64,000 nucleotides of DNA, from NCBI GenBank assembly GCA_008632985.1, contig QPGO01000017.1:186001-250000 (forward strand). Reading direction: 5' to 3'. The DNA comes from Psammoneis japonica (taxonomy: Eukaryota). The position numbers and the translations under genes are program-made. Under the pieces are notes generated by a model, which was not told the DNA's origin, made no database searches, and worked only from the letters and a program-made list of their open reading frames with translations. Positions within the stretch are counted from its first letter, which is position 1. Each line of letters opens with the position of its first letter. Below are positions 21,494-64,000 of this stretch, piece after piece.

Positions 21494-22268
21494 CCTCTAC
21501 AAGTACCAGATAGTTCAATGGCAGCGCCCTTGAATGATACTTCCACCCACGCTGGACCCCAACCAGCGCCTGAAAGATTCACAATTCGAAATAAAATGGG
21601 ATGAAATAGCGAGTCTCGCTGATCCCACGCTCCTCCAGTTCTCGTGGGAGTTGTGGATGAATGAGAAAATTTCAATTCCACACTTTTTGATGATTTGCTG
21701 TCGATCTTGTGAGCGACTCTGGCGGGACTGCCGGCGCGGGCAACCTTATCCTAGATTTCAGTACCACGTCTTACGTGAAGATCGTCTCGTGTAAAGAGTG
21801 TCGTTGGAAGTCGGAGACATTTTTCGATAATTTCAAACATAATCGCATATTTTAATAAGCCTATACAGATTCTAATTCTATACTACATTCAATATGGACT
21901 TAACTTCGATAGTACATCTATGACATATTAATTTCTGATTGTAAATCATAATGTGGGATATCGATTTCCTACGGGAGTCGATGGTATGAGTATATTAAGA
22001 TTGGGGTAATAACAAAAAAATTAACATGCGTAATCAAATATTCGGCCGTTTATCTCAGATCTTATTTGCGCGCTCCCATGACCTGTTGCGTATAGTGCAG
22101 TACAAGTCTTACATACACCCTCCCTTCGTATGTAAAAGTCGTTGGAAAAGTCGTTATTGCGCGGGTCTTGTGAGAACGCGATCTGCCACCACAAAACAAG
22201 ACTCACACCCGCCAACGTGGTTCGAGAAGCGCAACAGAAAAAGACAAACGAACGCCGCAGGACTAACA

Positions 22269-22414
22269 TTTGCATGCAAGAGAGGCGACGAGACACGCAG
22301 GACTTGGTTCAATCGCCAACGGCAACATCGTATGTGTAACGTTTGCATGCAAGAGAGGCGACGAGACACGCAGGACTTGGTTCAATCGCCAACGGCAACA
22401 TCGTATGTGTAACG
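22269..22414. repeat. Perfect 73-bp tandem duplication just upstream of GPN3
   Basis: tttgcatgcaagagaggcg...tcgtatgtgtaacg present twice head-to-tail (22269-22341, 22342-22414). Confidence 0.95.
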
Positions 22415-22438: not shown

Positions 22439-23448
22439 ATGGGACGATGTGCAATTCAAATCGTAATGGTATGTACTGCGGTATGTTTCATGTTTCAGAC
22501 ATACTAAAGCGATAACGCAATCGTTGACTGACCGAGTCTCACACTTGTCACTAGGGACCGGCAGGTTCGGGTAAAAGTACCTATTGCCATGCTATACAAC
22601 AGCACTGTGCGACTCTAACCGGTTCAAGGCGTCGAAGAGTACATGTTGCAAACTTGGATCCAGCAGCCGAGACCTTTCGGTATGATGTGTCCTTTGATGT
22701 GCGAGACTTGATTTCCGTTGAGGATGTCATGGAAGAGCTCGGACTCGGGCCGAATGGATCACTGATTTATTGCATGGAATATCTTCTAGAGCACTTGGAG
22801 TGGCTACAGGATCATTTAGACGATTTCTTGGATGATGAGTACCTCATTCTGGACTGCCCAGGGCAGTTAGAGCTCTACACTCACGTTCCAGTTATGAAGC
22901 GAATATTAGATCGCCTAAGAATGTGGGGCTTTGAATCAAGCATGGTCAGCGTCTTTGTTGTCGACTCAACCTTTGTGTGCGACACGTCCAAGTTCATATC
23001 TGGAAGTCTGCTCTCTTTGAGTGCAATGATTGCCATGGAGCTGCCGCACGTGAACTTGTTATCCAAATGTGATCTTGTAGATGAGGACGCAATTGAGAAC
23101 ATGCTCAATGTCGAGAGCGCAACGCAATTGTGGGATATGGAAGAGTATCGACAGCAGATTGTACACGGCGAAGAAAGTTCCGAGACTGATACCCAGCAAC
23201 CGGAGGATCGGGAACGGAGACGTTTGATTGAACAGCAACGACGAAAAAGAACCAAACTGACAGAGGCGATTTGTTCCCTGTTAGATGACTACACTATGGT
23301 TTCGTTCCTACCTCTCAATATCACCAAGGAAGACAGCATTGATCATGTGCTGACGACAGTCGACCACACTATTCAGTATGGAGAGGACCTAGATGTCCGA
23401 GAAGCAGAAGGTGGCGACGAGTTTGGATCGGCAGAAGCATTAGGCTAA
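22439..23448 (+). CDS. GPN3: GPN-loop GTPase 3
   Basis: MGRCAIQIVM|intron ~22469-22554|GPAGSGKSTYC, NLDPAAE, GLGPNGSLIYCMEYL, DCPGQLELYTH, ELPHVNLLSKCDL, IQYGED. Confidence 0.93.
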
Positions 23449-23489
23449 ACTTAGAGAAGTCACACATCTTCCTCTTTTTCAAAATTGAG

Positions 23490-23616
23490 CGTTCGAATGA
23501 TGATTCTCAGGAGCTCCTGGTCGCTGAGTATTCAGAGTCTGCCGTCACGATCCCACTCTCTTACCCTCAAGTGAAAGTAACTTTCTTTATTAATGATGCC
23601 GTCGGGGCTTGACCTT
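23490..23616 (-). pseudogene. Degenerate copy of the 3' end of the aspartic protease gene
   Basis: Aligns to 32231-32423 (gaatga, ctggtc.ctgagt, cttaccctcaa, aaagtaa, tctttattaat.atgccgt, gggcttgacctt) with an internal deletion of roughly 70 nt. Confidence 0.85.
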
Positions 23617-24799
23617 GCTTGCTTCGCTTCGTGCCAAGTTTTTTGCGCCAGTTGGTGGTTCGGGTTCGCACAATCCTTGTCAACGGACATTAGGCCCCAC
23701 TTATCGAAGGCCTAGTCTCAGTGTGACTCTCAGCAGAAAAAAGGTGATGCTGCTACTTTTCTCTCTAGACAGACTCATCAGAAAAAGATCACACTGAAGC
23801 AAGCGCATGATGTTTGCACATGCGGTGCCGCAGTCCATCTCCATGTGGCGAGTGCGACTAGAAAAGTCGGACAGTGCCACAGTTAGTCGTCACAATGGTT
23901 TTCGAGCACATTGCAACTTGCTCTCAAGATTGATGCAGACTGCCACCCACCAGTGCTGTCTGGATAACCGTTGTTTGGTCAATCAAGCAGGCCACCATCT
24001 CAAAATAAAGAGTGGCTCCTCGTGGTGCCAGCAGCCACAGCACGCTGAAAAAAGCACCCCACAAAATCAAAGGACTGTCAAATGGACAAGAAGGCACAAT
24101 TGTCAGTTTTGATTACTTTTTTCCAGTGTCTGGACAGACATGAAAAGCTCCACAGCTTGACTTGAGAATTGTTTTAAACTGGTGGTTTTTGCCAACAATC
24201 AGCCAGAGGAGAGACTACTCACTGCACTTGTGAAAGTTGCACCATGTCTCAGCAAAACAAGTGTCTCAAGAAGGGGGAGCCACCACCATCTTTGAAACCC
24301 CAAATTTCTGCCAAGTGGGTGTGCGTCATGCAGAGAGAATGCATTTGCACGAAACTGGTCTCTGCCAGTCGCTCATTGAGAGAGGGCCATTTGAGAACAT
24401 TGAGCCTTGTGCACAGCAGCAAAACAAAACAAAAAGAACAAAGCTGCTGCTGTTTTGAGGATGGCATGCCGTTGCCTTCTCAAAGGCCTCAACAACTCTT
24501 CTTGCTTTCACAACTCTTTCATGCACCTGTTGTTTTACACACATTTTCTCTCTTGCCAGCAACACTTTTGTGTCCTCTCTCTGGAAGGAACAAACTCCTG
24601 ATCACACAAGCAATCATTCATCATTGGCCAAAGCCAAGAGTGAGACTTTCATGGGTGGCTTCATCAGTGGTCATCTGCTGTTGATGATGCTGTCGCAGGA
24701 GCTGTTGCATTAAAAAGATTCAATGTCAGGAGAGCAGACACTTGACTGAAGTGACCAGATCCCAGGTTGTTGAGCTGTTGCATCACACTCTGGTGCATT

Positions 24800-24849
24800 C
24801 TCTGTCTCTCTGTCTCTCTCTGTCACTGGCTTCCCACCCATTTGTGGTC

Positions 24850-24880
<31 letters not shown>

Positions 24881-24900
24881 TCTCTCTCTCTTTCTCTTTG
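24800..24900. repeat. (CT)n microsatellite / polypyrimidine tract
   Basis: tctctctctc runs, longest at 24851-24872. Confidence 0.9.
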
Positions 24901-26299
24901 TTTCTCAGCCCCACCCATGATGTTTGTGATGCAAGAAGTCAGCTCCAAACACAAAAAGAGAGTTGAGTGGCTGCAGATGGCTTTTAGAATTCAAAATTGC
25001 ACACTGCTCTGCACACTTGATGGACAATTTGCTGAGAGCCAAGAGGGTCAAAGTTTTTCCTCTTCAATCTTTGGCTTGGTGCCCATTTTTTCTCCAACAA
25101 TTCCTTGGTGGTGCTGGGGACCTCCTGCATGCTCCATGTGCCAACTCTCAAAAAGACCATCAGAAAACCAAACTGGCCAGCAAAACATTGCCACATTTTG
25201 GGTGCTCACTTGACATCTGGCATCTCTCAGCAGATCTCCCACCCTTGCTTGTTTGGGAGCTCTGCATTTGGAGGCATGAGGCACCCATTGCAAAAAACTC
25301 TAGACCAAAATCACAAACACACAATGAGCAGTGCTCTTTCCAACTGCCATGTTGCACACAAACTTCTGCACCTTGGCTCACACATCTGGAAGCTTTTCAC
25401 ACAACCAGCCATGACAAATGACCCAGGTGACACTGCCACAAAAATTGTTTTAACAAATCTGCCTTCTTGAACCTTGGCACACAAGGAGAGGAGTTGTCAT
25501 TGTCATCTTGCTGTGCACCAGCCACAGAGAGTGAAAAAACCATGCAGAGCAAGTCAGCTCCATTTTGCAAGTGCTTGTCCTGTCAAGCACTCAGAGCTTT
25601 TGTGCACTCTGTTGGGCTTGAGAGGACAATCAGAGGAGCACAAGTGGTCCAAAAAACTGTGTTTTTCCCTGTCACTGGTGGCATGTGTTTCCCCTTTCCT
25701 CTTTCCCACATGATGCTGTGGGGTGCAACAGACCTCCCAAGTTGGGAGTGAGAATGATGATGCACAATGACTGTTTTGCTGTTGCATGCCAAACAAACAA
25801 ACTTCACTGATGTCATTGCCACTGTTGCTCCCTTGTGGCAACAACCAAACAGCCAGGATTTTGGGAGAGTCAAGCCTCCCTGTGGACAGATGACAGGTTT
25901 GATGGAGCCAGTCTTTGTTGTTGAGCCAAATCAAGCAGTGCTTCTTGCATCCCAAAAACAGTGGCACACTTCTTCAACCACCCAAGAAAGATCCAGCAGC
26001 AGTCAGAAAAGAAGGGCTCACACTGCTGAGCCTGAGAGACACAAAAATGTCTGAATCTGAAAGCTGCTGCCAAGGCAACACTGGGCAAGAACATGAAATA
26101 AACAAGATGGACAGGTTTAAAAAAAAAACAGGTCTGAAATTGAAGTGCCATTGCTTCATTGCCAGCAGCACTGATGCTGGCTGACCCACACTTCCAGCAC
26201 ATGTGACAAGTGTGGCAGAAGGAGACACAAAGGCTGGCTGGGATGGGTGTTGCCTCCCAGCAATGCCCCACCAAAGCAGCTGGCAATGGAGTGGGCACC

Positions 26300-29200
26300 A
26301 TGAAGTGCAGTGCACTTTGTTGGTTTCTCAGTGCTTTCAATCTTGGTTTTAACATGGCGACCCAATTCTGAATTGCGGAGGGCCATGCACAATGTGTTCT
26401 TCCAGTGTGTTCATCAGAACTTCTCTGTCTTTGGCGTGGCAATCCTGGCATTTGTCATGTGTGGTGTTGAGTTTGGCTTCAGCCTGTTGGCATTGGGAAG
26501 ATTTGCAAGAATCTGCTGCATCATGTCCATGAAACACAGTGTTGTGCTCTCCTCCCAGAGTTCCCACCATGACCTCCACATGTGTGCAATCCGATCTGAA
26601 CAGCCCACACAGGGGGTGGTTGATTTTCTTTCAGGCACTGTTCCAGCAGGCCTGACTCATGCATCTGCATCTCTTGAAAGGTGTTTCACAAAGCAGAGAA
26701 ATGCCCATTGAGAACACTTGTCTCCATCTGATGTTGATCTGTGCTGCTCTCCACAGTGGATGAAGGAAGAGGAAGGGGCATGCATTGGTCTTGCACACCA
26801 TCTTGTTTCAAAGCCATGCCTCCAGAGACAACAAAAGGAAATCTTGCAATGGGAGCATGGTGTCTGCCTTGTTGTTCAGACCATGGAGAAAGGTTTGTCT
26901 CCAGGCTTTGTTGTTTTGACAGCAAAGGATGTGGTCCTTGTCCTCCATGGGATGCTCACATGCAAGGCAAAAATGTGGTTGTGCTGGGTTTTGTCAGTTG
27001 GCAATTTCATTTGGAGAGGGACAAGCAATTTTCATGAGTGAGCTTGATGGTGGACAACATGCTTCTTAGAGAATCTGCAGACAAGAGGGGATGAGTGGTC
27101 CAACTGATCTTGTCTGTGACTGATTTGTCCCAGCTGTTTTGTTCACGAGTGTGTTCCATGAGGAGCAGGGGCTGCAGCTGTGCACCGCATGGACACTTTT
27201 GGTCCAGCAGCAGTGACCATTCCATCCAGAAGGCTGACATGCACTTGGCAATGGGGGAATGGCATTGCTTGGGTTGTGTTGGATGAGCATTGACCTGCCA
27301 ATTTGTCAGCTTGCACATTGACCCAAGCATTCAGAGGAAGAGTTGATGTGGGAACTTGACAATCTTGATGGCCTTTAACCCACTGGGTGACAGGTGCTTG
27401 GCCCAGGGAGGAACTGTCAACTGAAAATGCAATCTTGGTGGAGGTCTGATGGATTTTGTTGACAACATCCCAGTCAGACAACAAGACATTGGCACCATGA
27501 TGCTGGAGATTGAAATCTTTCTCTGGGCTGGCTTGGTCAAGAGTTTTGACAGATGGTCTTGAGACTGACATGCAACTGAGAATGTTTGCCAGAGCACAGT
27601 TGTCACACCAGTCATCCAAGCCCTTGCAGTGTGTCACTTGACAGAATTCAAGGACCCAAGGTGCAAAATGCAAATGGGACAGCACTCCATGGGCTTCCAG
27701 TGATGAAGGGAACCATCCAAAGAGAGGCCCATCACAATCAAAAAAGGGAACTCCTTCAATCAAAAGACAAAGTCCACCCAAAAGTTGCACTTTGAAGGTG
27801 AATGACCCATCACTCCTGGATGCAGTGGGAGAGGACACCAGGTGTCCAACAAGATCATGAAGGGACATGTGAAACACAAGATCAAGGAACAGATTCTTGG
27901 ATTTGTCCCACAGTGGAAGAGCCTGCAGGCATTCACAAAACAAGTCAGGAAGAGGTGAGTGGGTTTCCAAAGAGAGCTGCAATTGGTGGCGGGATTGAAG
28001 CTGCTGACATTTGTCATCAAAGGAAGCAAAGAGCTCAGCTGGAGAGGAGTCTTCAGAAGGGGGTGGAACAGCCTCCATTTCATGCAGAGTCAATGCTTTC
28101 TCATTGTGGGCCAAAAAGAAGTCAAGACCCACTGGGGATCAAACACATGGGAGAAATGCACCAAGGCTTGCATTTGCATCTCTCAGAGGGGGAAACCAAA
28201 CAATCTCCCCCAAAGGAGCCCACAGTTTAGCAGCAGATTTGGGGCGGCACAGTGATTTGCATGAACAGATCCAGGAGCACTGTGCAAGGTGGCAAGGCCT
28301 CTCTTGTTCCATGTTGATGAGAGTGCTGACACTGCTCAGGCAAGCAGGATCCCCATGCATCTTGGACTCATCCAGCTCCAGTCCACAGGTGAGAGTGATC
28401 TCTGAAACAGTGAAAACCTTGAGGCACAATCTGCAACAGTTGATCTGGCCAGCAGATTTCCAAGGAAGAAAGTTGGACAGATTCCAGGGCCACATCCATT
28501 GAGTGTTGGTTGTTGTTTTTGGAGAAAAAGAACACTCCATCATCTGACCAGACTGTGTTTCCTCCAATCCTTTGCAAGAAGGAGCAAACTGACATGAACC
28601 ACAAGGACTTGCAGCGAGGGTGTGAGGAGTGGTCATGTCAGTTAAAAAACTGACACCCACTCCCAAGTGCAAAACTGAGTCAAAGCAATGTGAACTGCCA
28701 CATGTGGTTGATCACCAAAGACAAAAAAGTGGCACACACCTTGTGCATGATGCAACAGTTGTTGAAGCTGTGCAACACCTTGTTTGACATCTGACAATCA
28801 GAAGCTGCCACCTCCAAGCAACTGTGGGGACCACACAAAATAAGTCATTTGGTGTTCCCCTGTTGCAACCACATTTTGCATGAGTCACACAAGCACGGCC
28901 TTTTGTTGAATCTTGAGGAGGTTTTTGGCAGTGAAGTGAGAGTTGGCCAGGACAAAGGTTGCCAATGGCAAATGACATGCATGGTGACAGCACACCAAGA
29001 TTTAGTGCAATCAAGAGGAACCAAGCAAATGAAGAGAGCTTTGCCATCACTCTTTTTCTTGCTTTTGACACTTTGAATTGCTGCTTCAGCATGCCAGCAG
29101 GGGAAGAGTGAGGGTCTTGTGAGGAGCATGGGCTGACAATTGAGTGCTGCACCTGGAGGCAGTTCAGTTTGATGGACAGGTTTTGTTCATGCTTGGCCAC
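26300..29200 (-). mobile_element. 5'-truncated, degenerate non-LTR retrotransposon (Ambal-like LINE with RNase H)
   Basis: Ordered fragments across frames: HKTL..P.G..KQQF (end of RT), AKCGCNRGTP..GP..LGG, WFMSVCSFL, QINCCRLCLKVFTVSEI...G, QERP...W, PLGE.W, RNase H motifs SDGS / GP...SS.EAHG / WCDN / SDWDV / WVKGHQD / N..AD.LA, and C-terminal WELWE.HN..FHG.D. Confidence 0.75.
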
Positions 29201-29299
29201 AACTCTGGTGGCAACAAGGAATCAAAAAATGCACTTGCCAACAGCAGCATCAAGCCACAACTTGAGCAAGATCAGCAATGGATCTTTGGACACTCAGGC

Positions 29300-31000
29300 A
29301 ACCTTTGAGGGCCTTGCACTCCCTGGAGCAATGAGCTGGGATGTGTTGTCAGCTTCAAAGGTGCACGCTCCTGTTCTGACAGGGTCATGGTGTCCTCATT
29401 GCTTTGTGGCCTGCTGCTTGTGAGACTGCTGCCTGTCAAGTGGTTGACACACATGGTGCCTTGGAATCTGTGCTCTGAGCAAGCAAGTGAACACACCTCA
29501 CCCTGCACAAAAAGGTGTGACATTTGTCTTGCCACCAGCACAAGTCTCTTTGATGTCAAGGCATTCTTGGTGTCATTCATCCACAGGTTTGCAGCAGAGT
29601 TGTGCAAAATTGTTGCTCAGCACCAGGCAGCAAGAAGAAGAGCCACAGGTGAGGGACACACACAACAAGATCTAAGAAGCACTCTCTGCTGGCACCTCAA
29701 AAGGACTCTGCTTTTGTCTTGACCCCTGCAGAGAAGTCAGCATGATCATGCTGCCTTGATGAGAAGTTGTGGTCACAAACCATCATGGCTTGTGAAACTG
29801 CAAACAGCAGCTCTCCACAGGGGCCCCACTTCTTCCAGGAGTGGCAATGTGCTGCCAGTGCAACAAAATCTCCACCACAATGGCAAAAAGAGCAGTGTGC
29901 TTTTGCCCATCATCAGATGTCCAATGCCTCCCATCTGTGGGCAGCATCTCCTTTTGTGGAAGAAACTGCAGATCCTCATGATGATCTGGCTGACTTTGCT
30001 TTTGCTTCTGACAACTGCTTGTGTGGCACATTCATGGTGGAGAGAACAGCAAATGTGTGTGCAGTCAAGGCACACACACAGTTTTTCTTGTGGCTGAGCC
30101 AGTGGTTGGTGCAGCCACCTGGAGCACCAAAGAAAAGTCTGCCAAAGAGAGTCAAAGTGTGCTCCACTTTTTGTCTTTGAGGCCTTCTGCAAGGCAGCAA
30201 AGACAGGGAAAGGTGCAGCAACTGCCCCTCAAAAGACTGAGATGGCTGTCAAAAAGAAGCAACAATGCATCAAAACAACACAGAATGTCTCAAGTGCAGT
30301 GGAAGCTCTCACAGACCTGAGGCTCAACCAAGTGGATGACAGTGACTCTGGACACTGGGAATGATCTCAAGAAGAAGAGCATCTTCCTTGTGCTCAGCCC
30401 TGACCTGAGCTGGCACACACCCCACCCAAACTTGCTCCTTCTGTTTTCACATGCACTGCTGCAGTGTGCATGCTTTGTGACTGTGCACTTGTTCTGTGTG
30501 GCTGCAAGGGTTGTGGCTTGGCATGACAATTTCTGTGCACAATGTTCAGACTCACACCCACAAAATTTGGGAGATTTGCTTGTGGTTGTTGGCAGACACA
30601 CTGTGTGTTGTTGAAGAACAAACCAAATTTTTCTCAAGTGCAGCAACTCTTGATGCAAACTGCACACAAAGAATCACACATGTGCAGTCATTTTGACCAA
30701 GGCAAGACTCTGTGCAAACAAAGCACAAAAATGATTTTTGCATCTTGTCAAACATGTCACAGCAGATTTTTTGCTGATGATCACATCCCAATGCTGGGTG
30801 TTCTTTGCATGTGCATTGAGCATGCTGCAGTTGCCACACAAGATTGTTTGCCTCCCTTTTCTTGCCTGCTGGCCATTCTTCTGAAGAGCAAAAGAAAAAC
30901 AAAAGAGGTGACATTGGCGGGTCAGTCACTTCACTGTGGGTGGGTGTGGTCTGGTTGTTGAGAACACCTTTTTGCTGTTTTTTCATCTGCTCACAGCAGG
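29300..31000 (-). mobile_element. Possible degenerate hAT-type transposase relic
   Basis: Weak motifs in the expected order: BED-finger-like GNCSMLNAHAKNTQH (~30800), TRWxS-like CTNHWLS (~30100), dimerisation-like W...LVLVARQM...SLACSEHRF (~29480). Heavily mutated. Confidence 0.3.
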
Positions 31001-31666
31001 GGTGGCTTGTCGAACAGGAGCACCACAAAAATTGTGCAGGCATTGAAGCAATGCAGCAAATCAAGAGGGTGGTCGGGCACCACCAGAGAACTTGCAGCTG
31101 CCACTGAACATGCCACCCCCTGCTGGTTTGCTCTGTTGCCATGTCAGCCAACCCAAAGCAGCAACAAAAACACTGGGCACAACTCGAACAAAAAGGGCAG
31201 GCCGGCACTGCTGCGCCAGTGGTGCAACAGACACCCAGCTCCACAACCACTGGGTGCTTGGGGATCACCACAAGGTTGTTTCACCACCAACCATCAAGGC
31301 TTGCAATGACTTTTCACCACTGCTGGTGCCAAGGATCCATGCAGCAGCCAAGAGACCTCATGGGAGGTCAGCTCCAACCAAGTGGCAAAAAAATGTGTTC
31401 CACAGCTGTTCCCAAGAGTCAAAAGAGGACTTTGGATGTTGCTGTGTGTCCAAACATTGCACACTCCAGGTGACTGCACTTGAACCTTGTGCAAGGCATC
31501 AACAAACAAGGTGAGACAATGCCAAGTTGTTGCTTTGGCTCTGGAAAAGTGAGTTGTCGTCTCCGACAATGACTCCTCCCACCACACCATCCACAGGAGG
31601 GTGGGTGCACACTGGGAGTGAGGGCTGTTCTCCCATCAGAATCACCATTGCATCAATGCAGCAGCA

Positions 31667-32190
31667 ATGTGTGTGGATTTGAGTCCAGCATGGCATGGTG
31701 AGCATCATTGCCATCAACTCCACTTTTGTGCATTGCATGTCAAAGCTCGCATCTGGGAGTCTGCTCTCCTTGAGCACCATGATTGTCACCACAGAGCCAA
31801 CAAATGTGATCCTGCTTGTGAAAATGCCACTGAAAACACACTCAATGTCAAGAGCTCAATGCAATTGTGGAATGTGGAAGAGCATTGGCAGCATCAGATT
31901 GTGCATGGGCATGAAAGTCTCCGCGAGACTTTTGCCCAGCAACCAGTGGTTCAGGAGGAACAGACACATTTGATTGAACAACAATGATGAAAAAGAAGCA
32001 AACTGACCAAGCAACGTGATTTGTTCTTTGTTGGATGGTTTGTTCTCACCTCTCAATGTCACTAAGGAAGACAGCATTGATCATGTGCTGATGACAGTCG
32101 ACCACACTATTCAGTGTGGAGAGGACCTAGACGTCCGAGAAGCAGAACGCGACGACGAGTCTGGATCGGCAGAAGCACTGGGCTTGACTT
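31667..32190 (+). pseudogene. Degenerate duplicate of the 3' half of GPN3
   Basis: MVSIIAINSTFVHCMSKLASGSLLSLSTMI vs MVSVFVVDSTFVCDTSKFISGSLLSLSAMI; NTLNVKSSMQLWNVEE vs NMLNVESATQLWDMEE; 32049-32145 nearly identical to 23311-23408. Frameshifts and TGA stops. Confidence 0.95.
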
Positions 32191-32240
32191 AATCCTAGAA
32201 ATATGACAAATCTAGGAAAGAAATTTTAATGCTTGAATGA

Positions 32241-33653
32241 TTATCGGGAACTGCTGGTCACTGAGTTTCCACAGTCTGCAGTCGCGATCCCCACTCGCTT
32301 ACCCTCAACGTCAAAGTAAATGTCTTTATTAATCATGCCGTTGGCTCCAATAACCGCACCCTCAGCTTCATCCACGTAAACTCGATTTATTAATTCCTCT
32401 GTACCAGACCAGGGCTTGACCTTACCTGTTTCATCCAGCGGTACTCCTTCCATGAACGACTCTGGGAACAACGTAAAGGGGACTCCTTTGCTTTTGTCGT
32501 TGTTGATTTCATGGCCAAGACCACCGCCAGTCGCGAAACCTCCGCTCGCCAAAACAAAGTTTATTCGGGGCAGCGTGAGGAACTCATCGAATGTGTATAG
32601 TCGCGTGCGCTTCTCGTAGTCCATGCCAGTGACCTGCTTCCAAGCTTTCTTAAAACTGCCCTCGACTGCTTGCGGGAGATAAGTGTCGGTTGTCCCGCTA
32701 TCGAGAATAGTGCCCTTACCACTTGCAAATGCTGTGAGTTCACTAGCAAGCCACCAACTTTGCAAGGAAGCTTCTCGGCATGCCACGCAAACGTGTCCAA
32801 CCCTCACCTCCAATACGGCGACACTATACCAACTCTTGGCGGTCTTCACCAAGGGCGAGAATTTCATTGGTTCCAGATGTCTTGATGTCAGAGCACCACC
32901 GAGTGAAAAATGTCCACCAGCAGCTGTGAGGCACATGGAAAACGCGTTCCGTGGTATTGATCCCAATTGGTACATAGCTTGGATGACAGACGTGTCATGC
33001 ATTGCCAAACCCAGAATCCCATCAGCATACTGCTTTGTAAATAATCCCGTCTCTTGGGTTTGACATCCAAATGCATATGGGATCGCCATACGCATAAACG
33101 ACTCATAGCTCTCCTCCTCTTCAGGGGATCCAAACCAAACAATGTCCTCGGTTTCATACGCTCGCCACGAAGATCCCTCTGTGTACTTTTGAGACAAGTG
33201 ACATTTGTTGTCACGCGGTGAACAAGTAGCAATGTCTTCCAAGAAACATTTCCCGCACTCTGGTATTACGTCGGTAGTGCTCACGGCTGGATCAAAGAAA
33301 CTCGATGTGTGCTTCCCACACTGTCGGCAGGGTCGACACGGAAATGCCATGAGTCGAGAGCCCGTGTCAACAATGAGGGCCTGTCTTTGCGGTGGTGATC
33401 CCACGTATACGTAAACATGGTGAGTCCCTGAAGTTGCATGAAGCGGAACTGTCAAGGAAGCCTCTTGTACTTCAAAGGTTTCCGATTCACCAGTCTGTGA
33501 ACGAAGAGTCTCAGTGTCAATGGCGAGCTCCGAGTCACCACCCCGAAGACTCGCAAGCCGTCGTCCGGTTGTAGGTATGACTGCCAATCTCACAACAAGC
33601 CCCGTGCAAATCAGAATCAACAACAAGTCGGTGCGTATTCGAAGCCAACCCAT
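32241..33653 (-). CDS. A1-family aspartic protease (plasmepsin V/APCB1-like), secreted or ER
   Basis: Signal anchor; catalytic LIVDTGS and ILDSGTT; flap YTEGSSW; FGCQ..ETGLF..QYADGILGL; C-terminal VIGAN...FD...RVGIA.ADC. Confidence 0.93.
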   Translation of the reverse strand: MGWLRIRTDLLLILICTGLVVRLAVIPTTGRRLASLRGGDSELAIDTETLRSQTGESETFEVQEASLTVPLHATSGTHHVYVYVGSPPQRQALIVDTGSRLMAFPCRPCRQCGKHTSSFFDPAVSTTDVIPECGKCFLEDIATCSPRDNKCHLSQKYTEGSSWRAYETEDIVWFGSPEEEESYESFMRMAIPYAFGCQTQETGLFTKQYADGILGLAMHDTSVIQAMYQLGSIPRNAFSMCLTAAGGHFSLGGALTSRHLEPMKFSPLVKTAKSWYSVAVLEVRVGHVCVACREASLQSWWLASELTAFASGKGTILDSGTTDTYLPQAVEGSFKKAWKQVTGMDYEKRTRLYTFDEFLTLPRINFVLASGGFATGGGLGHEINNDKSKGVPFTLFPESFMEGVPLDETGKVKPWSGTEELINRVYVDEAEGAVIGANGMINKDIYFDVEGKRVGIATADCGNSVTSSSR

Positions 33654-34063
33654 GTTGATTTTCTTCTTGGGTGTCAGATTGGCAAAGTTCGCAATCTTAC
33701 TTGTTAGACGTCATCGACGAGCGCCACGACCACGACGGCGGCGACCACCATTTTCTGTTTGATATTTTTGATTTTTTTGTGCCGTGATCCGATTTCCAGA
33801 TTGGTGACCGAACGATATATTAGATAAATATGTATGAATATTAATTACATTATTTTAATAAATAAGGGTGATGTCACAACGGAAAAAGCATTCATTCGCA
33901 ATGTCCTCCGTGTTTTGCCGCTCGGCGGACGCAGCACGCATGGCGGCGGCAAGAAGAGAGCGCAGTTTTTTCCTTCAGGCGTGAACTGTTGAAAGCTTTT
34001 GATAGGTCGCTTCGCCCCTCTTGCTCATCCTCATGCTTATTTTTCAATTTGGAGTTGGAAAGA

Positions 34064-44414: not shown

Positions 44415-44830
44415 AGAGATGATCTACCGCAGTACTTTTAGCTACGATAGTCTACCGGGACCGTGCGTTTCTTGCTACGTACAAAATAGAAAAGACCATA
44501 CCGGTAGCATGCGTATATCTCTAAACTATCTATGGGTACGAGTAAGTGAGTAGTACCGTAGAGAGAAGTGCAGCTAGGTCCCTACCATAGCAAGGATTCG
44601 GTCCCTCTACGTCGTAAATGCCGTGGTTGAAGAGATGATCTACCACAGTACTTCTAGCTAGTCTACCGGGACCGTGCTTTTCTTGCTACGTACAAACTCT
44701 AGAAAAGACCATGTCGCTAGCATGGTAAATCTCTAGTAGACTATCTATGGGTACGAGTAGAGTAGTACCGTAGAGAACTGTACAGCCAGGTCCCTACCAT
44801 AGCAAGGACTTGGTCCCTCTACATCGTAAA
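44415..44830. repeat. Diverged ~215-bp tandem duplication, non-coding, TpA-rich
   Basis: agagatgatctacc...aggtccctaccatagcaagga...ggtccctctac.tcgtaaa at 44415-44618 and 44632-44830. Confidence 0.9.
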
Positions 44831-59337: not shown

Positions 59338-60341
59338 CAGAAAACGTATCCGCGGTATGGTAAGTGCGGTCATAACGGCGGTATGGAAATCTGATTGGAC
59401 AAACGACGTCAGCTAAAAACTTTGTTGTTCACAATAAGTAATGTTGACATCATTATTGCCCCCCCAGCTACAACCGGTACGGTAGCCGCACGCACGCAAT
59501 CTACCTACAGTACGGTACGTACAGTACTGTACACTGTATCAGACGCATCACGTCAAGTACTTCTACTGAAGCCGCGCCTACATAGAATTGTTTTTGTGCA
59601 AGTCGCCATGGCGGTGTGTGGTTGTTTTGGACAACTTCTCTCTACTTTATGACTGTAGAAGTAGCATCAATCGATAATATGAAGTAGTTATGATACGTGT
59701 CGAGAAGGAAATGGTGACGCTTTGCGTACTTCTTTCCAAAATGGACCTGTTGCATTGAAAGAATTTTTCAGGTCTTTTCTTGCATCGCAGATGGCCATGC
59801 ATAAGGTCCCTAAACTAGATCTCTATGACACAGAAACTGCCATAGAGAGTAATTTAGATATAGCGGATTGAACGGTGTTATATGTAAGCTAAATGATTTT
59901 AGTATAGGTGGACTAAATGGCCCGAGAAGGACGGTGCAAAACTTTCTACTTGAAAGTTGAAGAAATTATCCCTTAAGAGTGTCGGACTTGCATTGAACAA
60001 AAAAGAGAAACAACGAACACATACTATCAAGAATACTGCGGTTCTAATGGTGTTATTTTTATGCTCACCAGTCCGAAAATTGCCGCTGTCATGGGCGGTT
60101 CGTGCTGTTTGCGTACACAGTGTGTTGTCTTTTTTCACGTCTCTTGGCTCTTGGGGGACTTGAGAATTTTTGAAGTTGCTCGGCGGCGGCGACGCACGCC
60201 GGGCCGAATAAATGGTGGGGTAAGGATGATGTCATCTTTACTTAATGTGAAGAGTAAATTTCATAGCTGACGTCGTTTGTCCAATCAGATTTCCATACCG
60301 CCGTTATGACCGCACTTACCATACCGCGGATACGTTTTCTG
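59338..60341. mobile_element. Non-autonomous TIR DNA transposon (MULE/Mutator-like MITE), recent insertion
   Basis: Perfect 78-bp terminal inverted repeats (59338-59415 / 60264-60341, starting cagaaaacgtatccgcgg) and identical 9-bp direct repeat agcaaggga on both flanks (59329-59337, 60342-60350). No transposase ORF. Confidence 0.93.
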
Positions 60342-60559
60342 AGCAAGGGAGGCGCGGGGGAAAGTAGGGCCCTACCGTGGTACCATGAGGGGGAGGCACA
60401 GGGCGGGGCGGCAGGCCGCAGGGGCATCCTGTTTTATCGATGACGTGTTACCGGCACTGACTGTGCTTTGTGTTGCATTGCTCCATTTCGTGGGCAGCGG
60501 TCGAAGTTGACAACTAAGAAAGACATGACAACATTCAAAACTCGGAAACTAATTAGACA

Positions 60560-63500
60560 ACTGCCAACAACCTGATGGAGGGGGGGAGGGGGCAAAAGAA
60601 ACACACACAACATCATCATCACACATCGCCACACCTGCATGGCGAAAATTTGCGCAATTGTTGCACTGCATCAATGTGCTCTCATTGCCCAGCTCAGCAC
60701 ATGGGCGGCACAGCACCTCAAAGTTTGGGCACCTTGCTGCTCCTTCTGCACACAGCCAAGCAAGCAAGCTCTTTTCCTGAGCCCAAAAGTCAGAGCTCGT
60801 GCACCGCGACACTGAGCTTCCCTGGTCCTCCCAGAGCCGCCAGAGCTGAGCTTTTTTCTCAGACAACACTTGAAAAGCACAGCTCACTACCTGCAGCATT
60901 CCAAAAAGATGTTGTGCCATTTCAGCAATTTTCTGTGAGCTGGCTGCTTCAACAAAAAGAAGCGGTGCCTGCTGGCTTTAAGACCCCCCGCCCCGCCAAA
61001 CAAAATGTCGTTGGTTTTGTCAGCACCAGCAAAGATGCACTCAGCCCAAAGCTGCAAAAAATGAGAGTTGATTGAGTCATCTTTGAAAACTCAAGAGACC
61101 ACACATTTAAGAGCGAAAGCACCAGTTCTGTCAGCAACGTTTTGAATCAAATGACTGAGTGCACACGACCACAGCTTGCCAAGAGCCACCCCTCGCACAA
61201 TTGCTGGTGCAGACAGAGGATTGGAGAAAAAGAGGAAGACAAAGAAGCACAAAGTTTGTGAGGGAGCAGGTGCAAGCAGTGTGCAACAAAAACTGAGTTT
61301 CTCTTTGTGCTGGCAACCTTCAGTGATGGCCAGCAGCCAGCTCGCAAATGCAAGAGCTCACATGAGCAAACTGGCCAGTGGCAACAAGAGGAGAAATCCA
61401 GATGAAAACATCTCAGCAAAGGGGCAAGAGTGCAACTCAAGCAGAAGGAGCTTTGTGGGGCAATGTTTGGTCAGCTGCAAAAATGTGTGAGGCAGCTGTG
61501 CAGTGCTGAAGGGGGGGATGTTGAGCCGGCAAGTCAATGTCACCAAAAGGGAGTCCCACAAGGTTTCCTGTGCTGCTTGGCACACTTGCCTTGGCAAATT
61601 GTGAGGGCCGTGGGTTGCCAAAAGTTGTCAGTGAAAACTTCAAACTCTCAATGCAACAGGTGCCTGGCAACGCCAAATGACAAACCAAACATTTCACTCT
61701 CCAAAGAGTGAGATGAAACTGAGAAGTGAGAGATCCAACTTTGCTCACAATGAGTTGCCGAAAATCCATGTCAGGAGCCAAAGCATTGTTTCTTCACATG
61801 CCCAGGCCCTTTGCATTTCCCATGATCTGGATGTTCCAACAGAAAACAATGCACAAACTCAAAATTTGGGGGATGACTTCAGCCAGCTGCCAGCTGAAAA
61901 AAGTCTTCTGCTCATCAGTGCATTTGGGGGTTTTGTCAGTGCTTTGTTGTGTGCAAAAAAAGACATCTGGGCTGGTCTGTCCAGCATTTGCTGAATCTGT
62001 CCAAAACCCCCAAACATGCTGACTGACTGAGACTCTTTGTGCAAATTCTGTGCAAGATTTTTCAGCCAGCAGCTGGCTGGAGATGCTCCCCAGAGATTGC
62101 TCACCCTTTTCTTTGGCAGCACATCAGCTGGAAGAAGGGAGAGTGTTTCAGCCATTGGCTGGCTCAAATGTCTTTTCTTCATTTTGCTTTTGAGCCATGA
62201 ATGTGCTGGCTGTGTTGATGGGAGATTTTCTTTGATGTTCAACAAAGCTCAAAACATTTGTTTTTCTGTGCAAAAAAGGGCATGCGTGTGCCACTTGAGT
62301 CTGGAGCAAGTCCTCTGAGAGGGAAAAAGAGCACAGCTTTGTGGGGGGTGGAACACTTCTGCTCATTTGGCCCCAATCTCATTTCACTGAAAACACTGTG
62401 AAAGACTGCTTGCCTCTTCCATCTCATCAAAATGGCAACACAGCTGCACTTGAAATGGCCAACAGGTCTGCTTGCCAATCTTGCTGGACTTCCCTGTCTG
62501 CTTGTGTTTGTTTTCAAATGCATGGCTTGATGTCACATGTCAAGGTGCAACTCAGATTTCCCCTCAAGATTTGGCACAAGCTGCCACATTGGATCGATGC
62601 AAAACAATGCAATGGGTTGTCCAAAGCCAACCATCTGTTGCCCAAATTTGTCATGATTGTCAAAAAAGGCAGCAAAGGCAGGAATGTCTGAATGAGCACA
62701 AGCAACAATGGTTGCACAGCTGGCAATGCAGTGAATGCCAAAGTGCTGGTCACCAACCAACACTCTGGCATTGTGGTCTTTTGGCAAAGATTCAAGGTGC
62801 TGTGAGAGAGGCTCCAACCTTCATTTTAAGCAAACACACTGGCCCACATGCATGCCTTTGCTTTGGTGCTCATTGCTTTTGGTTGGCCAGCCAAAGACAC
62901 AGCAATCTTCAGCACAATGATGCCAATGCCAGCAGCAGCAACAAATGCCTCAAGAGCATCCAAATGGTCAACACATGTTAAAAACACCCAGTGAAATGCT
63001 CCATCCACAACTGCACGCAGTTCATTTGCAGTGCCAGGTGGACAAGAGGAGTGACCATCATTGACAACAAGGTCTTGATGCACAGACTTGAGGACTGAGA
63101 TGTCTCATGCTTTTTTTCATGGCTGAACTTGTGCCAACCATTTCTTGGAGCATCTTTGGTGGCAAGCAACTTGGAGCAGTTCATGAAGAAACGCTCTTGC
63201 AGGAAAAGCTGGCTGGCACATTTCCATCATAGACTCGCTGCTCTGAGATCTGGAACAAGTGAGTGGTTGTGACAGCACCTTCACAAGCTCTGATGTTTCT
63301 TCAGTCAAGTCAACACTTCTCAGTGCAGCAAAAGCATTTCATTGATTTCTTTCATGCCAAAGCAACTCTGAGGCTTGCAGCAAGGAAATCTTGCTCAGCA
63401 CTGGTGCCTCTCCGAGCCTGTCAACAAAAAAGCTGCAAGCTCTTCTCTGTAATTTCATTGCCTCAGCATGATGCACAAACCACCAAGTTGCAGAATTTGT

Positions 63501-64000
63501 CACCACTTCCAATCAATGCTAAAATGAGGTCAAAAGAATCCTTGCCCATCACTGCACCTCTCTGGGGAAATAAACCAAGCCTGATTTAAAGTGCCGCCAC
63601 ACCTTTGCCCAGCAACGCTGGTGCTGGCCAACCCCCCCCACACCTCCAGCACACCCTGCAAGGGATGAGGCACCTGAGCCATTGTCTCCCAGGGGAGACG
63701 CCCAATTGAAATGGCTGGAAATGGCGTGTTTGCCATGTGCCAACAACTTCTTTGCTTCCTTCAAACTTTGCTGCAGGTGGGGCCAAACCATGGAAATCCA
63801 GCTCTGGATGCAAGTGGTGGAGAATGTCTGATGTTCTTCTGCCAAATCTGGCAAAACTCCTCAATCTTTGGCCAAGTGCTCTTGTCGCTCATTGCAAATT
63901 GCCATCAATTCATCTTTGGCCATGCGCCCATGAGATGACTTGCAAGAATCTACACTGTGGCCATGCATGAGCTGATTGTGTTTTCTCCTCCCACAATTCC
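60560..64000. repeat. TpA/CpG-depleted degenerate domain (probable element relic, runs off the window)
   Basis: Same composition as 24100-32050: TA nearly absent, CG fading with distance from the edge, many short Tyr-free ORFs. Element family not identified. Confidence 0.7.

Follow-up and report, generated by a model that had tools for sequence, protein, structure and literature searches.

Results

A duplicated segment between two convergent genes

The window analyzed here is a 64,000-nt stretch of a Psammoneis japonica contig (QPGO01000017.1, positions 186,001 to 250,000 of the forward strand; assembly GCA_008632985.1), and all coordinates below are counted from its first letter. It contains two intact genes in convergent orientation, two copies of a segment that includes the 3' end of each of them, and three domains in which the dinucleotides CG and TA are nearly absent:

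22439-23448, plus strand: intact gene for a predicted GPN-loop GTPase 3 (GPN3), with exon 1 at 22439-22468, an intron (GT..AG) at 22469-22554 and exon 2, including the stop codon, at 22555-23448
32241-33710, minus strand: intact gene for a predicted aspartyl protease, convergent with GPN3
22922-23605, plus strand: copy A of the duplicated segment, of normal composition, made up of the last 527 nt of GPN3, the 3' flanking sequence and a decayed remnant of the protease 3' end (~23500-23605)
31670-32344, plus strand: copy B of the duplicated segment, made up of a GPN3 pseudogene part (31670-32187) and, as the remainder, the functional 3' terminus of the protease gene
31670-32115: converted part of copy B, with the last converted sites at 32092 (CG to TG) and 32115 (TA to TG)
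~24050-32100 (~8 kb): main domain nearly without CG and TA and rich in TG and CA, with a gradual left edge (~24000-24550) and a sharp right edge
1 to ~1250: second such domain, cut by the start of the window
~60550-64000: third such domain, cut by the end of the window
26385-29142, minus strand: retrotransposon-like ORF relic in the main domain, located by the homology of the ORF at 27146-28138 and by tblastn
63666-63986, minus strand: C-terminal end of a related retrotransposon ORF, in the third domain

The gene at 22439-23448 is predicted to encode a complete GPN-loop GTPase. Its translation matches the Pfam family PF03029 (GPN/ATP_bind_1) with E = 6.5e-73 (245.9 bits, against a cut-off of 27), reads MGRCAIQIVM in exon 1, the same as the orthologue consensus, and carries both the P-loop GPAGSGKST and the Gly-Pro-Asn loop, which are invariant across 17 aligned sequences. 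Its best matches are to diatom proteins annotated as GPN-loop GTPase 3; the orthologue of Ditylum brightwellii comes closest, with 73% protein identity. Directly upstream of the GPN3 start, a 73-bp unit is present 2.1 times at 98% identity (22264-22414), which may represent a duplication in the promoter region. The protease gene was assigned from matches of its product to TAXi_N (E = 1.2e-22) and Asp (E = 5e-15).

Copies A and B are 73% identical over the full segment, and local alignment, blastn and MAFFT agree on the sites. An earlier note, drawn up from the letters of the window, had listed 11 short examples of dinucleotide differences between GPN3 and copy B, and all 11 are present in the alignment as written. 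Past 23605 and 32344 the duplication could not be followed, with extension scores no higher than those of shuffled sequence and no real match in a MAFFT check; the homology thus ends at the limits given, on the left as on the right. The GPN3 part of copy B retains the C-terminal 175 codons only, in which the family domain is no longer covered by an open frame, and contains two in-frame CGA-to-TGA stops and several indels; judged by these lesions, this part is the fragment of a pseudogene. Conversely, the unconverted sequence at the right of copy B supplies the 3' end of the protease gene. This arrangement would follow from the duplication of a ~680-bp segment that reached from the 3' half of GPN3 across the spacer into the 3' end of the convergent protease gene; the two copies of this segment would now stand on either side of ~8 kb of transposon-derived DNA. 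Each gene would have retained whichever copy completes it (A for GPN3, B for the protease), and the spare halves would have decayed.

Domains depleted of CG and TA and their content

Between 24000 and 32100 there are 31 CG and 20 TA in total. In 1-kb steps, the domains show CG and TA at ~0-0.3 of expectation and TG and CA at 1.6-2.2, while G+C remains steady at ~0.48. Pooled over 24500-32000, 61100-64000 and 1-600, the ratios of observed to expected counts are 0.08 for CG, 0.03 for TA and 1.82 for TG, as compared with 1.01, 0.61 and 1.13, respectively, outside the domains. We simulated the random conversion, 50:50 to TG or CA, of all CG and TA in the ordinary DNA of the window, and the resulting profile can be set against that of the domains (TG 1.94 simulated versus 1.82 observed, AT 0.91 versus 0.77, GC 1.08 versus 1.24). 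Because the simulation reproduces the domain profile, simple conversion accounts for most of the composition.

The edges of the two depletions differ, with 1 TA and 26 CG in 1-1250 and 6 TA and 18 CG in 60500-61249. The TA-erasing activity thus seems more complete, or wider-reaching, than the CG-erasing one. The first domain also contains a tandem duplication of ~470 bp with 80% identity (707-1081 versus 235-599). Just to the left of the third domain lies a 129-bp inverted repeat with 90% identity (59338-59466 and 60213-60341), which may be the remnant of an unconverted DNA transposon; the stretch between its arms is TA-rich, with observed/expected values of 0.85-1.10 in 59500-59999. Elsewhere, a 212-bp unit is repeated in tandem at 44415-44830 (1.9 copies, 85% identity), and the 1-kb stretch that holds it is the sole one in the window in which TA is over-represented (1.33).

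With TA gone, TGA is the sole possible stop codon, and the domains are consequently full of long spurious ORFs; 65 ORFs of at least 80 residues overlap 23800-33500. For the longest ORF in the main domain (27146-28138, minus strand), 52 relatives were found at E <= 1e-3 (best E = 1.1e-14), matched mostly inside proteins of 900-1900 residues. Pfam searches on seven of these 52 relatives found Exo_endo_phos (AP-endonuclease) above the cut-off in one, RVT_1 below the cut-off in one, RNase_H below the cut-off in one and nothing in the remaining four. By tblastn, 63 of 64 HSPs fall on the minus strand of 26385-29142, one of them, in the interval 27146-28711, running for 1,281 nt in a single frame. 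Tyrosine makes up 0% of the residues of the ORF, versus 3.6% in its relatives. Only the region C-terminal to RT is recognizable by homology in this relic, and Pfam searches of the window frames returned no match for RT or endonuclease domains in the relic itself. To judge from its relatives, the relic is probably non-LTR retrotransposon-like. Together with the related ORF end in the third domain, this homology marks the domains as transposon graveyards, the element type probably being a non-LTR retrotransposon.

No family at E <= 0.01 was found by Pfam searches of 23 of the 36 domain ORFs of at least 100 residues, nor in a six-frame translation of two domains in which stops were replaced by X; the six-frame scan misses even the GPN3 fragment and is hence insensitive. 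For most of the main domain (24050-26385 and 29142-31670), no origin was identified.

The ends of the two relics (26115-26564 and 63560-64000, both minus strand) align with a score of 138 when recoded as purines and pyrimidines, against at most 60 in 30 shuffles, whereas as plain DNA only ~80 nt of the same pair align. As they align far better when recoded, the two ends differ mainly by transitions. We considered the two relics as a second before/after test and rejected them, given that they are too diverged (~55-60% identity) and that a recoded alignment biases the count. Neither blastn self-comparison nor a search with 30-mer purine/pyrimidine seeds found another converted copy of window sequence.

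Before/after comparison within the duplicate

For the comparison of the two copies, the alignment was split at 32100, intact copy A served as the reference, and only those CG and TA that align without gaps were counted (five more CG/TA of copy A fall in alignment gaps). Copy A keeps 32 CG and 20 TA across this ungapped aligned segment, and their counterparts in copy B are distributed as follows:

Up to 32100, 21 CG of copy A: 2 kept, 9 TG, 7 CA, 3 other
Up to 32100, 9 TA of copy A: 0 kept, 5 TG, 3 CA, 1 CT
Up to 32100, all other sites: 52 of 348 changed (15%)
Beyond 32100, 11 CG of copy A: 6 kept
Beyond 32100, 11 TA of copy A: 7 kept

Inside the domain, 28 CG and TA have been lost (19 of 21 CG and 9 of 9 TA), of which 24 became TG or CA. 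The sample is small (9 TA, 21 CG). The difference in loss between the inside and the outside of the domain, within one and the same duplicate, is significant for both dinucleotides (Fisher p = 0.01 for CG and 0.005 for TA). Counted per site, positions in TA changed in 11 of 20 cases inside the domain, as against 27 of 197 other A/T positions (Fisher's exact test, p = 6e-5), and positions in CG in 22 of 45 cases, as against 25 of 151 other G/C positions (p = 4e-5); an excess of change at TA and CG over other sites is what the earlier note had anticipated. To the right of 32100 there is no such excess, either for TA (4 of 22 versus 19 of 106, p = 1) or for CG (5 of 22 versus 18 of 88, p = 0.78). 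The background rate of 52 in 348 predicts that 72% of dinucleotides should be kept, under which the retention of none of nine TA has a probability of ~1e-5.

Inside the domain, AA was kept in 24 of 32 cases versus 0 of 9 for TA, CA was kept in 23 of 32 with a single change of CA to TA, and CG was converted after every 5' base (A, C, G and T). Both outcomes are balanced in copy B (5 TG versus 3 CA from TA, 9 versus 7 from CG), and across the domain TG makes up 48.5% of TG+CA. The heterogeneity of TG and CA (chi2/df 0.9-1.2 at 100-500 bp) does not exceed that of ordinary DNA, and there is no clustering. New CG and TA that arose in copy B are scarce as well, with 2 per 431 aligned bases inside the domain versus 11 per 244 outside (p = 4e-4). 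Since new sites are also missing, the process either outlasted most other decay of copy B or is still running. Hence, of the earlier statement that the gene fragment was "converted once", the conversion stands, and the one-off event does not.

Direction of change

As outgroups, we used 16 of 120 listed diatom orthologues, comprising top hits and named species; one partial seventeenth protein was left out. The two copies differ at 75 codons, 26 of them synonymously and 49 nonsynonymously. At the 49 amino-acid differences, the outgroups match the intact copy in 41 cases and the decayed copy in 3, with 5 ties, which supports placement of the changes on the decayed copy and agrees with the pseudogene branch named in the earlier note. 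Those TA-derived changes that affect conserved residues are all assigned to the decayed copy: TAT to TGT (Tyr to Cys), where all 16 outgroups have Tyr; ATC to GTC after T (Ile to Val) and ATA to GCA (Ile to Ala), with Ile in 13 of 16 outgroups each; and GTA to GCT, with Val in 12 of 16. This polarity rests on protein outgroups, the closest being 73% identical, and synonymous changes are polarized by composition only, so that the polarity of the synonymous changes GTA to GTG and TTA to TTG, and of three TA changes that affect weakly conserved residues, is not firm.

The edge of conversion and the reality of the sequence

The first unconverted sites in copy B are found at 32099 (CG), 32108 (TA) and 32128 (TA), interleaved with the last converted ones. 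The conversion therefore ends within ~25 bp near 32100, at a distance of ~140 bp from the stop codon of the protease gene. One continuous duplicate is thus converted up to ~32100 and ordinary beyond it, in accordance with the earlier view that the bias is mutational and was acquired in place. The accompanying statement that it was "not inherited from a TE" holds insofar as the bias was acquired in host DNA, and needs qualification insofar as the domain itself contains transposon relics.

The dead protease fragment beside copy A, which lies outside the domains, keeps TA at 23529, 23562, 23578, 23588 and 23591 and CG at 23543, 23548, 23600 and 23603. Loss of function alone is hence not the cause of conversion. 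Nor is being duplicated, since conversion is absent from copy A and from the rightmost 244 bp of copy B. The functional copy had been described as untouched, and this extends to its non-functional 3' flank and the adjoining protease fragment.

Reads of public run X1 assemble into a 10,427-nt contig (word depth 63) that reproduces 29500-33500 with 0 differences. The assembly may itself derive from this run, for which no library type is recorded; the agreement excludes miscalls from noisy reads and is not independent. By arithmetic on record coordinates, ~28150-32100 lies within one k=31 contig whose depth equals that of single-copy genes. A second run, X2, whose kind is not on record, covers 32048-32191 (in the form of copy A) and 32210-33500 and does not reach left of 32048, the part without cover being no evidence. 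Its contigs of 1,547 and 1,047 nt are approximately of the sizes of the protease and GPN3 mRNAs, and the protease contig ends at 32210, 31 nt beyond the stop codon. If X2 is RNA, the edge of conversion would lie ~100 bp beyond the transcript end.

Discussion

A position-bound mutation process at the edge of a transposon domain

The comparison of the two copies shows a process that is mutational and acts at the level of DNA, in place, strand-symmetrically and site by site, and that is bounded by position and independent of duplication. We consider it likely that the GPN3 half of the duplicate was swept by such an in-place process converting CG and TA to TG and CA. The spare GPN3 half adjoins the transposon-relic domain, and its first ~430-445 bp would have been swept by the same process that shaped the domain, through single-site transitions, on one strand or the other, by which CpG and TpA, both of them self-complementary pyrimidine-purine steps, become TpG or CpA. 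Such a process would require neither duplicated nor non-functional sequence, would have acted late or may still be acting, and would best be seen as spreading ~430 bp from transposon relics into host DNA.

We conjecture that the domain represents silenced, methylated chromatin, in which case the conversion edge would correspond to a chromatin boundary located in the likely 3' end of the protease transcription unit. CpG loss would then be due to deamination of 5-methylcytosine; by our own estimate, CpG decay at 15-20 times the background would suffice for the observed CG retention. TpA loss requires an excess that is comparable or larger, and could be due to a second activity restricted to the silenced chromatin of the domain. 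Two chemistries are conceivable for it, both conjectural: deamination of adenine or methyladenine after T, or oxidation of the methyl group of thymine, which would then mispair with G. The palindromic nature of TA prevents a distinction between the two from sequence alone. That the TA-free zones are wider and cleaner than the CG-poor zones speaks against an origin of the TA activity as a by-product of CpG repair, and it may be a separate process; overall, we give two separate processes for TA and CG the same chance as a single one.

Alternative explanations

The duplicate could instead have been mutated by a RIP-like, duplication-triggered premeiotic process, with the RID-related DNMT4 as the candidate enzyme. 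Copy B is indeed a duplicate, and RIP can leak into flanking DNA, but copy A is untouched, its non-functional flank included, and so are the rightmost 244 bp of copy B, which are duplicated to the same degree. Moreover, ~28150-32100 is found at single-copy-gene depth in one k=31 contig, the window holds no second copy of any domain sequence even when coded as purines and pyrimidines, and TA is destroyed here, whereas Neurospora RIP creates it. Diatom DNMT4 does group with fungal RID (PMC9998398); taken together, we regard a RIP-like origin as unlikely. The fragment's position next to retrotransposon-bearing DNA could also point to its capture by a mobile element, editing as RNA or cDNA in the manner of an ADAR or APOBEC, and insertion in an already converted state, the more so as ADARs prefer A after U. 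This is very unlikely in view of the continuity of the duplicate, whose converted sequence passes without interruption into the unconverted part and then into the intact protease gene. Editing by way of RNA or cDNA would mark one strand, in runs, and we find both strands affected equally and without clustering; CG is converted in all 5' contexts rather than in the TC/CC pattern of APOBEC, and newly arisen CG and TA are missing too.

Even less probable, in our assessment, is the ordinary neutral decay of a CpG-methylated pseudogene, with TA loss reflecting chance or a genome-wide bias. The estimate given above would allow CpG decay alone to produce roughly the observed CG retention, and TA is somewhat under-represented in general (0.61 in the window outside the domains). 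Neutral decay nevertheless fails to account for the loss of all nine TA (p ~1e-5 under the local background), eight of which turned specifically into TG or CA, for the TA kept by unconstrained DNA just outside the domain, or for the presence of only 20 TA in 24000-32100. We attach next to no weight to an artefact of assembly or base calling, in which modified bases would be misread as their transition partners. Long-read base callers do misread methylated motifs, but the k-mer contig at depth 63 reproduces domain and flank with 0 differences, fully methylated CG would yield mixed calls, including TA, and copy B additionally has indels and 15% other substitutions. Just as negligible appears a selective purge of CG and TA as dinucleotides recognized by a nuclease or sensor. 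Joint suppression of CpG and UpA is known from RNA viruses and cytoplasmic mRNAs (PMC3829696). The domain, however, is without an intact gene (no Pfam family in six frames), and the sole ORF for which relatives exist is a relic. A depletion as deep as 0.03 also far exceeds that in the viral cases, and it is implausible that selection should act separately on hundreds of sites in dead DNA. An in-place, position-bound mutation process remains our preferred reading.

Comparison with known mutation systems

Fungal RIP changes C to T only, mainly at CpA, which creates TpA; it needs duplication and mutates both copies. The P. japonica domain resembles the product of ascomycete RIP in that dense transitions disable transposon-derived DNA and spill into host sequence, and in the presence of compositionally distinct, gene-poor blocks beside normal genes. 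It differs in that domain TA falls to 0.03 and A:T to G:C changes occur, in that copy A and half of copy B are spared, and in that the extent is positional, ending at ~32100 inside the duplicate and spanning ~8 kb that have no second copy in the window. Hence, none of three hallmarks of RIP was found, neither a CpA target raising TpA, nor mutation of both copies, nor an extent set by homology, and the contrast with fungal RIP drawn in the earlier note is borne out by the 32 CG and 20 TA that copy A keeps.

In basidiomycetes, C-to-T hypermutation in CpG context is concentrated in transposons (PMC3318451). The present domain is alike in its C-to-T changes at CpG in transposon DNA. The target in the basidiomycete study is reportedly TpCpG; unlike such TCG-type hypermutation, conversion here affects CG after A, C, G and T alike, with an added TpA component. 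The CpG half resembles methylation-driven CpG decay as in vertebrates and plants, which occurs in methylated, transcriptionally silent regions and turns CG into TG or CA on both strands, site by site. Such transitions on both strands are seen in copy B (9 TG and 7 CA among 21 CG). Methylation-driven decay leaves TpA alone, however, and the depletion here (CG 0.08, TA 0.03) is deeper than the vertebrate genome average. In somatic hypermutation, polymerase eta causes A-to-G changes at WA motifs in the course of the repair of deaminated cytosine and thereby couples cytosine deamination with A to G at TA. Polymerase eta also mutates AA, whereas AA is kept in 24 of 32 cases here and TA in 0 of 9, and the TA-free zones of the window reach beyond the CG-poor ones.

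To our knowledge, transposon-directed hypermutation is well described in fungi only, with cytosine alone involved. For diatoms, CpG methylation of transposons is documented (PMC9998398 and PMC2806351), and the RID-related DNMT4 is described without a known function (PMC9998398). No paper on joint conversion of CG and TA to TG and CA in diatoms or other algae was found in a literature search that left subscription journals and preprint supplements outside. The CpG half of the process is ordinary, and the TpA half appears to be undescribed. A GPN3-profile scan of metagenomes, covering 25 loci and 206,551 bases, gave no 1-kb stretch with both CG and TA below 0.25; only one of the 25 loci is diatom-like (68% identity), and the scan says nothing on other diatoms.

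Implications

The in-place conversion process preferred here may in turn reflect a dedicated, chromatin-targeted DNA-editing defence that clears transposon domains of CpG and TpA through transitions affecting either strand, a possibility that we put forward tentatively and hold to be rather less probable than its absence. One candidate would be a deaminase acting on 5-methylcytosine before G and on adenine after T; another would be a dioxygenase attacking the methyl group of both 5-methylpyrimidines, 5-methylcytosine and thymine. If true, this would be a homology-independent hypermutation system distinct from RIP, and the first natural process known to target A:T pairs of nuclear DNA.

A host gene fragment whose starting sequence is known shows directly that DNA in a transposon domain loses every TpA and nearly every CpG. 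The duplicate is a ready assay locus for the conversion process. Purine/pyrimidine recoding recovers homology between converted relics, and may serve generally to regain repeat families in such genomes. Even as a mere chromatin-dependent bias, the process renders the affected domains invisible to similarity searches, and transposon ages and the repeat content of such genomes would be misjudged. Should the TpA half be the work of an enzyme, this enzyme would be a natural A:T-to-G:C DNA editor and constitute a novel type of genome defence.
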